This document shows positions 5,784-53,425 of a DNA stretch of 64,000 bases, piece by piece. The stretch lies in sequence record OM953433; one strand, written 5' to 3'. The notes beneath the pieces are model-generated. The model did not search any database and was not told the origin of the DNA. It saw only the letters and a list, made by a program, of their open reading frames with translations. The position numbers and the translations under genes are program-made. Each line of letters opens with the position of its first letter. Position 1 is the stretch's first letter. Source of the DNA: Shigella phage Henu11.

Positions 5784-6042
5784 TTTTACTCCCTCTCAAA
5801 TCATTCTGGATAATACCCTACAGCAATTTTCTGCAAAAAGCAAGTTGACAAACTACTTGACAAGGTGTTAGTCTTTTCGAAGTGGGTTTTATCTTAATAG
5901 ACTCCCTTTATAGATTAACTATACAGTTTCTTTAAAAGTCTTAAAAGATTTTTAATAGCTTTTAAAAAGCTTTAAAGTTATATGTATAACATACATAAAG
6001 ATAAGAGATTAAAATCTTTATAGATACTTAACAGAGGCAATC

Positions 6043-6483
6043 ATGCAGAGGATGTACGTTCACCCAGATATCAATAACCTTGTCCAAGCTTTAGAAAGAG
6101 TTGAAGCACTTTACATCGAGGCTCAGAAGGAGTATGCTTATCAACATCGTCGAATGGTTGATGTTCAGCATGAGATAGAACTATCAAGTGGATACGACGA
6201 AGGTTTAAAGTGTTCTGTATTTGAGCACATGAAAGAGATATCTTCAGAAAGACGTAAAGCGAAAGACACAATCTTTTTGATAGATACCTTAAAAAATAAG
6301 TTGCAAAATGGAACGGACTTAGATAGTCTATCCCAACTGCTTCAGGATGCAGAGAATACGTGGGACAGAAATTACTTCCCACGGTCTGAAAAAGGACTTG
6401 ACTTCTCTTCACAAGAAAGCTTAAGATTATCACGACTTACTATTAACAAAATGAGAGAGATTAAAGATGAAAACTGTAAATGA
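6043..6483 (+). CDS. hypothetical protein
   Basis: 146 aa; first gene of plus-strand block after AT-rich divergent region. Confidence 0.5.
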   Translation: MQRMYVHPDINNLVQALERVEALYIEAQKEYAYQHRRMVDVQHEIELSSGYDEGLKCSVFEHMKEISSERRKAKDTIFLIDTLKNKLQNGTDLDSLSQLLQDAENTWDRNYFPRSEKGLDFSSQESLRLSRLTINKMREIKDENCK

Positions 6484-7261
6484 GATTCTGGAAGAAAAAG
6501 GTATTGACGAAGCATTCATGCTGAACACTGTTGAGACTCTTGCTATCATTATGCGTAGCAACTCACTGTCAGGAAAATTTATCCCTGAATCTCTGCGTGT
6601 TGTAAAAAACGCTGTAGAGAATGACGAAGATTTCCGTAAAGAGGTTGAATACCTGCTGTCTAATAAGACTGATGCTCTGAAAACCATCCTCATTGGTGTT
6701 GATGCTTTTGCAACATATATCTTTGATGAAATGTATTCAGGTGGATACATCCAGATTACTGAGCAGGGTATTAAAGAGCTTGATAACATGAGTGATGAAG
6801 ACATTCTGAAAGCTATTTGTACGCCAGTTGCTGCTGTAATGGCATCACTAGAGAAGCGTATGAATGATAAGTCACCACGTTATGTAAAACTTGATTGGGG
6901 CTTTGATGAAGTATCTGAAAAGGCAATTCAGTATGCTGATGAGACAATGAATAAGCTGTCAGAGATTACTAATGGTCTCGCATTAGACCCTATTCAGGTG
7001 AAGGTAACTTCACTGTTAAACGCTATCTTTAGTATCATGGGTATCCATGCTTTACTTGAAGTTTCAAAAATGTTAGAGTCTGACCCAAGCTTTGTAGAGA
7101 GCATTTCACAAGGTGCTCATACAGCAGCACTCGGAGAAGTATTTAGTCAAACTGGTGCAGCAGTTCTTAGCACCAAGATTGCAATCAACTTCGGTGAAGA
7201 GTTTGTTCAGCAGCTAGAAGCAATGTCTGAGCGTGAACTCACTGGTTATAAACTACAATAA
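6467..7261 (+). CDS. hypothetical protein
   Basis: 264 aa ORF followed by hairpin terminator. Confidence 0.5.
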   Translation: MKTVNEILEEKGIDEAFMLNTVETLAIIMRSNSLSGKFIPESLRVVKNAVENDEDFRKEVEYLLSNKTDALKTILIGVDAFATYIFDEMYSGGYIQITEQGIKELDNMSDEDILKAICTPVAAVMASLEKRMNDKSPRYVKLDWGFDEVSEKAIQYADETMNKLSEITNGLALDPIQVKVTSLLNAIFSIMGIHALLEVSKMLESDPSFVESISQGAHTAALGEVFSQTGAAVLSTKIAINFGEEFVQQLEAMSERELTGYKLQ

Positions 7262-7276
7262 TTGTGGCATACCCTT

Positions 7277-7304
7277 AAGCCTCCTTAATTGGGGGCTTTT
7301 TATT
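7277..7304 (+). terminator. rho-independent terminator
   Basis: hairpin AGCCTCC...GGGGGCT followed by TTTTTATT. Confidence 0.5.
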
Positions 7305-7318
7305 ATGGAGTGACTTAT

Positions 7319-8059
7319 ATGAAAAGTGTTATTGCATTTACTGGAAAAGCTCGTTCTGGAAAGGATACGTCTTGCAGCATTGTAAAAAATCTATTGAATG
7401 AGGTTGGATACACTGTTAAAGTGTTTGCGTTTGCCGATAACTTAAAAGCAACTGCTGGGTTTATCTTTGACTTAAACTGGCACGACCTATATGGTGATAC
7501 GAAAGAAACGCCTAAAAAGTTTAGCTTAGATTTTGACAACCTTAACTCTCGTGTGGCATGGGCTTTCAATATAAACATGAAAAGCAAGGGTATACAAGAT
7601 GATGCAAAACTTTGTGGGGAAATCACAGACAGACTTATCAAAGAGTTAAAGAAAGTTGGTAAGCCAACATTGCTTACAAAGCTTGGTTTGAAAAATGAAT
7701 ATATGATTTCCTCAAGACAAATACAGCAAGTCTGGGGTAGTGAGGTTATCCGTAAAATTCTTGGAGAGCGTTTCTGGATTACAGACTTAGCAGAACGTAT
7801 TGAAAAATTCTATGGTGATTGTGTTAAGAAAAGTCACATAGGTATTGCACTGATATGTGATTTAAGGTTTGATATTGAAGCTGAGTTCCTTCAAAGCTAT
7901 GATAGCCAGATAATTGAGATTACAAGAAAAGATGCTATTCAGGTGGCTTCCCATAGCTCTGAACGTGGTATCTCCACTAACTTCTCCCGTGATATTATCC
8001 AGAATAACGGAACGATGGAAGAGTTAGAGAGTAAACTTAAAACCATTATCAATCTATAA
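7319..8059 (+). CDS. deoxynucleoside monophosphate kinase (T4 gp1-like)
   Basis: P-loop FTGKARSGKDT near N-terminus and C-terminal GTMEELESKLK resembling T4 dNMP kinase; start placed at ATG with GGAG RBS. Confidence 0.75.
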   Translation: MKSVIAFTGKARSGKDTSCSIVKNLLNEVGYTVKVFAFADNLKATAGFIFDLNWHDLYGDTKETPKKFSLDFDNLNSRVAWAFNINMKSKGIQDDAKLCGEITDRLIKELKKVGKPTLLTKLGLKNEYMISSRQIQQVWGSEVIRKILGERFWITDLAERIEKFYGDCVKKSHIGIALICDLRFDIEAEFLQSYDSQIIEITRKDAIQVASHSSERGISTNFSRDIIQNNGTMEELESKLKTIINL

Positions 8060-8062
8060 AAG

Positions 8063-8263
8063 GTGTTGAAGATGAGAGATAATAACTTTAAAGTAATTGA
8101 CCACCGTACAGTGGAACTCTCATCTCTTTCCAAAGAAGTTATGATGGAGCGACTTGAAAGGGTCGCTTCAAGAAGGAAAGAGATTGCAGAAGAAATCCAT
8201 GAGCTTGATAAGATTGAAAACGGTCTTAAGGCAGAACTACAACGAAGAGGTGTGAATGGCTAA
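8063..8263 (+). CDS. hypothetical coiled-coil protein
   Basis: 66 aa ORF. Confidence 0.4.
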   Translation: MLKMRDNNFKVIDHRTVELSSLSKEVMMERLERVASRRKEIAEEIHELDKIENGLKAELQRRGVNG

Positions 8264-51818: not shown

Positions 51819-52183
51819 TTATTAGCCTCTAATCTTGCGTTTAGTCTGAAATAACCTTTGTGTTGAGGTGATACATCACCAACTACAACACCTTCAATCT
51901 TATAACCCTTTCCCATTACATACTGAATGTCCATTAAGAACGTCCCTAGACCAACAATATGAAACATCGGATAAAGTAACTCTTCAGAATCTGGTAGGTC
52001 AGTTTTTGGGATGTATTTAACGGTAGCTGTAGTTGGGTTGATATCCTTCTCAGGCCATTTACTATCACGCCATGTTAAGGGTGTCGGAAGTACATCATCA
52101 AGATTATACCTTTCACCTTCTTGAACACTTTGGACATAAGATTGTAGGAAGCAATAAAAGTCTTTTCTACTCTTTGCCTTCAT
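51815..52183 (-). CDS. hypothetical protein, paralog of N-terminal domain of 51186-51818
   Basis: 122 aa; shared SEELLY and FLMDIQY/FFMDLQY motifs. Confidence 0.5.
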   Translation of the reverse strand: MKAKSRKDFYCFLQSYVQSVQEGERYNLDDVLPTPLTWRDSKWPEKDINPTTATVKYIPKTDLPDSEELLYPMFHIVGLGTFLMDIQYVMGKGYKIEGVVVGDVSPQHKGYFRLNARLEANK

Positions 52184-52199
52184 TATCTTTCCTTAACAA

Positions 52200-52224
52200 A
52201 TAAAAAGGGGCTTTCGCCCCAAAA
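52200..52224 (-). terminator. rho-independent terminator (minus strand)
   Basis: reverse complement GGGGCGAAAGCCCC plus TTTTTATTT. Confidence 0.6.
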
Positions 52225-52226
52225 AC

Positions 52227-52817
52227 TTAAGCCATCGTCTTAAGCATATTTTTAAGTTTTTTGAGATTCATTGTCTCGTCCAACTTAAATCCAAACCCAT
52301 TGACGTAATCAATGAAATCAGATTTCTTACTCAGAGATAAAGCATACGACATATCAAAGTCATTACTTGGGGTTGATTCTGGTGAAGTGTTCACATCAAA
52401 AGAAATCTCTGTAGCAATGCTTTCACGCTCTCTCATATTATCAATAAGATTACATGTGTAGTTTGCTGGATAGAATGATGTTGAGCCAGATACATAACTA
52501 TACTTTGAGTTATGGATGAGGTTAGAGAACACTTTGAAGAATGTCTCTGAATCGTGGCATACAAGCTTAAATTCACTATTAGCACCAAGAGCCATTAATG
52601 AATATGGGCTTTCACCATCAATTGTGTAGTCTGGATTTCTGGATTGTACAGTCACGCGCATAAGGTTGTTTGCAATAGTCTTCTGCTTAAATGAGCTTGG
52701 AACATAGTGCATACCTCTTTCACACTGATTGACCAATTCTTTAAGAAGGTCATCAGAATATGGTGAAGTGATTGATACAGACCCATCACCATTATAATTA
52801 AAACTCACATTTAACAT
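52227..52817 (-). CDS. hypothetical protein
   Basis: 196 aa. Confidence 0.5.
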   Translation of the reverse strand: MLNVSFNYNGDGSVSITSPYSDDLLKELVNQCERGMHYVPSSFKQKTIANNLMRVTVQSRNPDYTIDGESPYSLMALGANSEFKLVCHDSETFFKVFSNLIHNSKYSYVSGSTSFYPANYTCNLIDNMRERESIATEISFDVNTSPESTPSNDFDMSYALSLSKKSDFIDYVNGFGFKLDETMNLKKLKNMLKTMA

Positions 52818-53044
52818 TTATCAGTTCTCCTACGATTGATAATCTTGCTGCAATAGAGAAATGAAGCAAATTCACTGGAAGAAACCATTAGAACCTGTTC
52901 ACTAGATTGAGCTATTGCTCTGAAATACATACCAGTTAGTGCATCATAGTGCTTATTCTTTCCAATTGAAGTGATATACCCATGACTCTTTGCAGTTTGG
53001 TATAAATCAATAATATCTGTGATTTCTAGTTGGGAGCTACACAT
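52811..53044 (-). CDS. hypothetical protein
   Basis: 77 aa; first gene of minus-strand block. Confidence 0.4.
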   Translation of the reverse strand: MCSSQLEITDIIDLYQTAKSHGYITSIGKNKHYDALTGMYFRAIAQSSEQVLMVSSSEFASFLYCSKIINRRRTDKC

Positions 53045-53333
53045 AAATAATCCTCTTGTCGTCTATAATTTTGAAAGTATAGGTACAAACCAATTTCAGA
53101 GGATTTGTAATAGAGTAATTCTACCCGCTTTGATTCCTTACAGTGATTGGTATTATTACCTGTCTTCAATTTTGAATTGTTTCTCATTAAGTCTCCTTTG
53201 TAGATAAAGGCAGACCTACAGCTTTAATAAGATGGTACAGTAATCCATACAACAAGTCAAGAAGTATTGCAACTAAAAAATTTACTTGACATTCCTCTTG
53301 ACAACGTGTAGCCTAATAAATACTTAGAAGATT

Positions 53334-53425
53334 ACTTAAAAGACTCTTCTAAAAAGGCTATTTAAACAGATATCTTTCTGGATATCTATCTCTTATCTTA
53401 AAAGCCTTTTAAGAGGTCTTAAAAG
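53334..53425. repeat. cluster of CTTAAAAG / CTTTTAAG octamers
   Basis: at least 4 copies in 90 bp upstream of ORF 53435; same motif clustered at 5925-5980 and 44050-44240. Confidence 0.6.

Follow-up and report, generated by a model that had tools for sequence, protein, structure and literature searches.

Helically phased A/T-core units at the predicted genome ends and downstream of three twin -35 elements in the Felix O1-like Shigella phage Henu11

In Shigella phage Henu11 (sequence record OM953433), of which a stretch of 64,000 nucleotides (the window) was analysed, the octamer CTTAAAAG/CTTTTAAG belongs to a family of CT-(A/T)4-AG units spaced 10–12 bp apart, among which it is the most frequent word. 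The densest array of such units (43880–45370) flanks and fills a 571-bp direct terminal repeat assigned by homology, and smaller clusters lie downstream of three unusual twin -35 elements. In the reading that we prefer, and that we consider evenly poised between right and wrong, the phased units would be docking sites for terminus processing and, in the predicted leaders, operators or hairpins, with the product of ORF41 as their likely reader.

Enrichment and clustering of the octamer

By megablast, the window belongs to a Felix O1-like myophage of the Ounavirinae. Its nearest relatives are members of Mooglevirus, namely Shigella phages KPS64, SFPB and Sf13-19 and Citrobacter phages Michonne and Moogle, and its gene order is that of Felix O1. 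According to annotation, T7-like replication genes are present in Felix O1-type phages. The layout is as follows:

3084–5783, minus strand: DNA polymerase gene, the last gene of the leftward replication block
5784–6042: region A, divergent, between the DNA polymerase gene and the rightward block
up to 43807, plus strand: rightward block of 37 kb (primase-helicase, nrd genes, rIIA/B and many small genes)
43808–45400: region B, a 1.5-kb gap between converging gene blocks
45401–53187, minus strand: leftward block
53188–53434: region C, divergent
from 53435, plus strand: rightward block, with ORF41 first, then ORF42, 26 tRNAs and the large terminase gene (61294)

Over both strands of the whole window, the octamer occurs 22 times against 5.14 ± 2.13 expected, a count matched by none of 100 shuffled sequences. 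Half of the copies (11 of 22) lie within regions A, B and C, together 3.3% of the window (binomial p = 2e-11). The original prediction, made from the letters of the sequence, had placed octamer clusters at these three strand-switch regions. This is borne out for regions B and C, with six and four octamers against 0.31 and 0.07 expected from the local first-order composition (p = 1e-6 each). The copies are located where they had been predicted, at 44053, 44084, 44196 and 44218 (plus strand) in region B and at 53335, 53397, 53418 (plus strand) and 53406 (minus strand) in region C, with two more minus-strand copies (44468 and 44480) beyond the range that had been given for region B. The predicted tandem duplication of GCTTAAAAGTAACGTAAAAG is also present (44195–44214 and 44217–44236). 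In region A, the multiple copies claimed between 5925 and 5980 come down to one exact octamer (5940–5947; 0.08 expected, p = 0.075, non-significant alone), the others being 8- to 11-nt variants (CTTTAAAAG, CTTTTAAAAAG and CTTTAAAG); region A clusters with the relaxed word CT[AT]4AG, of which five units are found in 5893–6023. A fourth cluster (region D, 42315–42392) is not located at a strand switch.

The regions are 64–72% A+T, as would suit a chance by-product of AT-rich intergenic composition. That explanation, to which we assign a practically negligible chance, is already refuted by the shuffles and by the local-composition test, in which regions B and C exceed expectation roughly 20- to 55-fold, and the octamer sites are conserved in relatives. 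The octamer observation is real and reflects functional DNA. Felix O1 has 29 copies against 7.4 ± 3.0 expected, clustered at homologous places (12615–12988, 21564–21635 and 63580–63713), while no enrichment of the exact octamer is seen in the Erwinia relative phiEa21-4 (3 against 2.8 expected).

A wider, helically phased family of units

Proposed as the motif itself, the octamer is better described as one word of a broader family in phase with the DNA helix. CT[AT]4AG occurs 84 times in the window, with multi-copy clusters at 5893–6023, 42329–42392, 44053–45271 and 53335–53425. The frame CTNNNNAG reaches 40.7 per kb in 43880–45330, against 9.2 per kb elsewhere, and the dominant words of this block include CTTGTTAG (nine copies against 0.07 expected), TGTTAAG, CTATATAG and CTTTATAG. 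Tandem Repeats Finder and a repeat finder resolve about twenty sub-arrays with periods of 10–12 bp in the block.

Base autocorrelation in the block peaks at a lag of 11 (z = 9.9), with harmonics at 20–22 and 31–33, and weaker peaks are present in region A (lag 11, z = 3.2) and region C (lag 12, z = 5.3). When the pattern of A/T versus G/C is considered, 17 of the 25 most periodic 300-bp segments of the 64 kb fall in region B, with a period of 11.2–11.7 bp, the strongest 11-bp periodicity in the window. Region B contains many copies of a 7–8-bp word at a spacing of about one helical turn, all in non-coding DNA. The units are frequently paired as dyads of the form CTTAAAAG-N1-3-CTTWWWAG. A composite dyad, CTTAAAAG-N1-3-YTKWWWAG, is found at six sites, all in regions A–D (seven matches against 0.04 expected, a statistic inflated by the pattern having been defined after instances were seen).

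Region B and the predicted genome ends

Region B appears to hold the physical ends of the genome, as a direct terminal repeat assigned by homology. The segment 44240–44810 aligns end to end, with 91.7% identity, to positions 1–570 of Citrobacter phage (Mooglevirus) vB_CbrM_HP1, which are annotated as a repeat_region and present twice in that record. The first and last 581 bp of the coliphage vB_EcoM_D4 record are identical to each other and align to the same segment, and several further records start at this boundary; related GenBank records thus already carry an annotation of the terminal repeat. PhageTerm analyses in two papers (PMC8303462, PMC11737134) indicate that Felixounaviruses, D4 being one of the phages concerned, are packaged by way of short direct terminal repeats, 581 bp long in Pr103Blw. 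Rather than the transcriptional control junction of the original prediction, the middle region would be a terminal repeat enclosed by convergent terminators:

43849–43874, plus strand: predicted intrinsic terminator closing the rightward gene block
43880–44239: left flank array, bordering the terminal repeat on its outer side, with units phased at 10–11 bp: CTCTATAA, CTTAAAAG (44053 and 44084), CTTTATAG, CTTATAAG and finally GCTTAAAAGTAACGTAAAAG twice
44240–44810: direct terminal repeat of 571 bp, by homology
44811–45370: right flank array (period about 11.7 bp), beginning at the conserved boundary AAGCAGATATACA, with units including GGGGCTTCTAAGG, GGGCTTGTTAGAG and CTATATAG
45374–45391, minus strand: predicted intrinsic terminator closing the leftward gene block

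The 22-bp tandem of GCTTAAAAGTAACGTAAAAG (44195–44236) ends 3 nt before the left repeat boundary. The terminal repeat is filled with (C/A)TGTTA(A/G) units at a spacing of 10–11 bp and contains CTTTTAAG twice, at 44468 and 44480. Its left boundary reads GTTA followed by GCCCCCTTTACATT, its right boundary GGGCTACC followed by AAGCAGATATACA; both are invariant among nine relatives and recognisable even in phiEa21-4. Region B as a whole is about 85% conserved in the nine relatives, while the protein of the adjacent ORF24 is just 54–66% identical. A 29-nt inverted repeat, I5 (44059–44087 and 44373–44401, 86% complementary), has its centre around 44230, not far from the left boundary; both the tandem and I5 are repeated elements adjacent to the predicted cleavage position. 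Direct repeats of 22 bp (2.2 copies) and 31 bp (2.3 copies) and many 11-bp units are also present in the block.

In part, the two ends of the terminal repeat (44242–44276 and 44761–44795) are inverted versions of one another (CCCCTTTACA...CTTAACAAAAT versus ATTTTAAGATTTTGCAAAGGGG), which suggests symmetric recognition at both cut sites. No credible open reading frame was found in region B. Many related GenBank records annotate one to seven "hypothetical proteins" inside the block 43808–45400; these small open reading frames are probably spurious.

Twin -35 elements and their predicted leaders

Elements of the form TTGACA-N6/7-TTGACA occur exactly three times in the window against 0.14 expected, all on the plus strand (at 5845, 42270 and 53286), and each is followed 25–50 nt downstream by units of the CTTAAAAG type. 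It is this shared arrangement, three twin elements each trailed by units, that revealed the fourth cluster, D. The -10 candidates, located 17–18 nt after the first hexamer, are weak (TAGTCT, TAACTT and TAGCCT). Ordinary leftward promoters are arranged back to back with regions A and C. The elements and the clusters that follow them are:

5845–5862, plus strand: twin -35 element TTGACAaactacTTGACA of region A, directed toward ORF 6043, invariant in eight relatives
5893–6033, plus strand: cluster A of CT-W4-AG units, a conserved, predicted leader upstream of ORF 6043
5940–5958: dyad CTTAAAAGattTTTAATAG in cluster A
5957–5971: 15-bp palindrome AGCTTTTaAAAAGCT in cluster A
5981–5997: hairpin TATGTATaacATACATA in cluster A
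42270–42288, plus strand: twin -35 element TTGACAatgccccTTGACA of region D, absent from the original prediction
42315–42392, plus strand: cluster D, upstream of a small open reading frame at 42433, with units TCTAAAAGG, CTTAAAAGattCTTTATAG (42329–42347), GTAAAAAG and CTATATAG
53232–53260, minus strand: leftward sigma-70-like promoter, TTGACT-17-TACCAT
53286–53303, plus strand: twin -35 element TTGACAttcctcTTGACA of region C, conserved in 15 distinct relatives
53322–53427, plus strand: cluster C, the predicted leader of ORF41, including CTTAGAAG, CTTAAAAG (53335) and CTAAAAAG
53368–53387: inverted repeat AGATATCtttctgGATATCT in cluster C
53396–53414: perfect 19-bp palindrome TCTTAAAAGcCTTTTAAGA in cluster C

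In region C, another CTTAAAAG (53418) lies immediately beside the ribosome-binding site of ORF41, and the two halves of the cluster (53335–53367 and 53398–53427) form an imperfect inverted repeat of 33 pairs. The leaders of regions A and D are paralogous, and cluster D has a counterpart in Felix O1 at 11329. Across genera the leaders are nearly invariant (15 relatives for C, eight for A), while the flanking coding DNA varies. The octamers are located in non-coding DNA under clear selection, leaders A and C being near-invariant where the neighbouring genes diverge.

Several octamers are part of dyads or palindromes, which would suit protein binding, and the palindromes at 53396–53414 and 5957–5971 combine the dyad symmetry of an operator with conservation above that of their flanks. 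The earlier suggestion of a regulator binding site is in line with this conserved, dyad-bearing non-coding DNA, but does not extend to the middle region, which is predicted to be a genome terminus. No helix-turn-helix domain was found in ten neighbouring open reading frames.

ORF41, a candidate reader of the units

ORF41 (53435–53806, plus strand), a DUF5681 protein and the first gene after cluster C, is probably a small terminase subunit with an AT-hook-like arm and may be the protein that reads the A/T-core units. An invariant KKGQSGNPxGRPKGSxN motif is shared by 22 ORF41 homologues. The sole match of its amino-terminal 27-mer in the PDB is the second AT-hook of HMG-I(Y) on DNA (PDB entry 2EZD, E = 0.14), in which RPRGRPKGSKNKGA aligns with NPSGRPKGSRNKSS of ORF41; the score is weak, as a motif of only 14 residues would lead one to expect. 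In the AlphaFold2 model (predicted local distance difference test score, pLDDT, 67), a basic arm without ordered structure precedes a helical hairpin. Neither Foldseek with this model nor phmmer with the full-length sequence gave hits against the PDB, and in related phage records ORF41 is annotated as hypothetical.

In two phage contigs the DUF5681 gene and the beginning of the large terminase gene overlap, the classic position of the small subunit; the DUF5681 proteins of these two contigs are alike and probably come from one phage group. In a marine contig, the DUF5681 gene is located in the same operon as the terminase and portal genes, upstream of them. The equivalent divergent region of this marine metagenome contig (3560–3700), upstream of its DUF5681-like operon, contains four to five tandem 11-bp CATTTAATAAA units, plus CTTAATAAcCTTAATAAG and CTTAATAAcCTTAATAAGgtCTTTAT; the phased A/T-core design is retained in this distant marine relative though the word differs. 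Where similar arrays were sought beside DUF5681 genes in distant contigs, the genomes were too AT-rich to judge. In Henu11 itself, ORF42 and the tRNA array lie between ORF41 and the large terminase gene (61294–62910).

Comparison with known systems

The closest parallel is found at the left end of phage T7, where the 160-bp terminal repeat (1–160) gives way to roughly a dozen CCTAAAG/CTTAAAG/CATAAAG units spaced 11–13 bp apart, the SRL/SRR arrays of Dunn & Studier 1983, with a proposed role in concatemer processing. Like T7, Henu11 (CTTAAAAG/CGTAAAAG/CTATAAAG) has non-coding arrays of 7–8-bp units ending in TAAAG directly beside a short direct terminal repeat, with copies also beside early promoters (CTTAAAGAGACTTAAAAG adjoins promoter A1 in T7); the Henu11 arrays abut both boundaries of 44240–44810, as placed by homology. 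Differences are that no sequence similarity was seen beyond the short word, that the Henu11 terminal repeat is itself filled with units (TGTTAAG), that its block extends over 1.5 kb where T7 has about 0.2 kb on each side, and that Henu11 is a myovirus without an RNA polymerase of its own, as far as none is reported for Felix O1 (PMC3185647) and not all open reading frames were screened.

The Henu11 units can also be compared with sites recognised by small terminase subunits. The R-elements of lambda cosB, pacL and pacR of SPP1 and the pac hexamers of P1 are repeated short elements that, together with bent DNA, flank the terminase cut site, as is predicted for Henu11, and in these phages the DNA is thought to wrap around the oligomeric small subunit. 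Those sites span about 100–200 bp within the terminase genes or close to them, whereas the Henu11 block is 1.5 kb long and the candidate small-subunit gene is 8.6 kb away; packaging also differs in type, being by direct terminal repeat rather than cos or headful. AT-hooks of the HMG-I(Y)/HMGA type read A/T tracts of 4–6 bp, matching the unit cores, but ORF41 has a single predicted hook followed by a helical hairpin. The palindromes at 53396–53414 and 5957–5971 resemble the OR and OL operators of lambda in being located in divergent control regions and more conserved than neighbouring genes. They differ from them in being placed downstream of the predicted -35 and -10 elements instead of overlapping them, and in having a half-site that recurs in tandem arrays at the predicted genome ends.

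Other features of the window

Upstream of region D, six cassettes of the form CTTTACATGGGG-[variable hairpin]-CCCCAGATAAAGAG are present in 37573–40920. Each can be read as a sigma-70 promoter (TTTACA-N17-TAnnAT) whose -10 element falls within the 3' arm of the hairpin, and they resemble the promoter-early stem-loop cassettes of T4-type phages. For Felix O1, they have been reported merely as "57-bp direct repeats" (PMC3185647). Fourteen small genes (37167–43546) share a common leader, CCTAAACTGGAG, right before the start codon. An intergenic tandem repeat of 45 bp (36814–36935, 2.9 copies, unit ACTCCAAAGGGAAAATTCATTTTCAATTTGTGCAGGGTTAG) follows a terminator-like hairpin.

Downstream of ORF41, ORF42 (53883–55298, 471 amino acids) combines DUF2828 and DUF7788 and belongs to a PHROG family named "RNA-binding protein"; its location directly upstream of the 26-tRNA array suggests a link to the handling of tRNA or other RNA. 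A weak additional tRNA-like match to Rfam (56348–56422, 30.4 bits with a threshold of 29) was not called by ARAGORN.

Discussion

In the mechanism that we propose, the units would act at the level of DNA, as docking sites presented on one face of the helix to a protein, or a ring of proteins, recognising A/T cores. The terminal array would supply signals for terminase recognition and terminus processing, as proposed for the CCTAAAG arrays of T7, in the region where concatemers would be cut and the repeat duplicated. A ring of ORF41 subunits might insert one arm per helical turn into the A/T minor groove, which would account for the phasing of the units. In leaders A, C and D, the dyads could be operators, roadblocks or hairpin arms that tune the rightward operons.

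Several observations weigh against this proposal. The termini of Henu11 are placed by homology, the leader status and transcription starts of regions A, C and D are predictions, and binding of the units by any protein is a candidate interaction put forward from the sequence. Within the terminal repeat the predominant unit is TGTTA(A/G), not CTTAAAAG, and the octamers of region B are no better conserved than their surroundings (0.87 versus 0.85). The AT-hook match of ORF41 is short and weak (E = 0.14), its model is of moderate confidence and gave no fold match in the PDB, and the small subunit could alternatively be encoded by a 68-residue open reading frame (61081–61287) that immediately precedes the large terminase gene. 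The flank unit of phiEa21-4 has become CTTCTAA(G/A), with a core that is poor as an AT-hook site, while region C keeps CTTAAAAGCCTTTAAAG and the CTTAAAAG palindrome; the terminal and leader units thus do not co-vary in that phage, which argues against one sequence-specific reader.

A different account of regions A, C and D would place the function in RNA, the octamer and its complement being arms of 5' leader hairpins (RNase III-type sites or occluders of the ribosome-binding site) and the copies in the terminal region unrelated inverted repeats of the DNA. We regard this as possible, if on balance rather unlikely. Leader C folds into a 33-pair hairpin with its base abutting the ribosome-binding site (z = -2.28), and the stem substitutions among ten relatives all keep pairing (one compensatory C-G to U-A change, one A-U to G-U), but this covariation is non-significant, 178 of 500 shuffles being as good with three variable columns, and phiEa21-4 lacks the long hairpin (z = +0.67). 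In region D a hairpin carries CTTAAAAG in its loop, and the hairpin at 5981–5997 changes from TATGTATaacATACATA to TACGTATagaATACGTA in relatives by compensatory T>C and A>G substitutions; leader A overall, however, is not unusually stable (z = -0.88). An Rfam scan found no curated family in regions A–D, tRNAs alone passing the gathering thresholds. The terminal-region arrays, and the dyad that the leaders share with them, are left unexplained by hairpins. A further, unlikely case is that the phased A/T cores simply make the DNA curved or bendable, or are sites for host Fis, IHF, HU or H-NS, with no phage-specific reader. The strong periodicity of 11.2–11.7 bp and the similar TAAAG arrays of the unrelated coliphage T7 speak for it, as do the top curvature peaks at the tandem (44201) and at 44889. 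The predicted curvature of the GCTTAAAAGTAACGTAAAAG tandem is 51 degrees, in about the top 0.2% of the window, as computed with a wedge model after Bolshoy et al. 1991. In regions A, C and D, by contrast, curvature is unremarkable (means of 15–23 degrees, with 17.5 ± 9.4 for the window), manual inspection, made in place of a formal scan, turned up nothing convincing as an IHF or Fis consensus, genera with related hosts have different units, and the near-invariance of entire leaders exceeds what bending alone needs. Intrinsic curvature as a single explanation was dropped, as the scan picks out just 44201 and 44889 and leaves A, C and D ordinary.

That the terminal block is an iteron-type replication origin, with octamers as initiator-binding sites, is highly unlikely in our view: the 22-bp and 31-bp direct repeats and the many 11-bp units would fit, but no DnaA box (TTWTNCACA) was found in 43800–45400, no initiator gene is adjacent (the neighbouring open reading frames are without known function), more than 100 units over 1.5 kb are unlike known origins, and the location coincides exactly with the terminal repeat. 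The original prediction had also offered a phage-specific promoter element, which here would be a middle or late element read by modified host RNA polymerase, and this we consider extremely improbable. Clusters A, C and D do lie upstream of operons, and GCTTAAAAG, which is loosely like the T4 MotA box TGCTTtA, was counted in its favour. A MotA-box-like reading of GCTTAAAAG was dropped on spacing and -10 grounds, by inspection only. No copy precedes structural or late genes, the hits near such genes in the window and in Felix O1 being single and intragenic, and the units are placed downstream of sigma-70-like -35 elements. A promoter word of this kind would recur with constant spacing ahead of many genes from one temporal class, but there are just three gene-proximal clusters, none of them before structural genes, at varying distances from the start codon, and the largest cluster occupies a gene-free block enclosed by terminators. 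The temporal regulation of transcription in Felix O1 is described as not known, which leaves room for such an element, but no phage RNA polymerase or sigma factor is reported for Felix O1 or known in the group (PMC3185647).

No description of this repeat family, or of its sharing between termini and twin-promoter leaders, was found in the papers available, nor was a transcriptome or motif study of Felix O1-like phages; a limited search gave no account of Felix O1 packaging signals. For Felix O1, a classic diagnostic and biocontrol phage, and its relatives, our analysis adds a precise placement of the terminal repeat in the Henu11 genome, its location within a 1.5-kb helically phased repeat block, and a specific dyad element linked both to the termini and to three unusual twin promoters. 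It also carries a warning to annotators about small open reading frames called inside the terminal block. The named candidate protein and the dyad sites provide concrete sites to test. We think it doubtful that DUF5681 is an unrecognised family of small terminase subunits which, reading DNA by an AT-hook-like minor-groove arm, would in Felix O1-like phages form an oligomer wrapped by the terminal units so as to guide the cutting of ends, and would bind its own and two other twin-promoter leaders; if this is true, DUF5681 binding at termini and leaders would couple packaging to gene expression.

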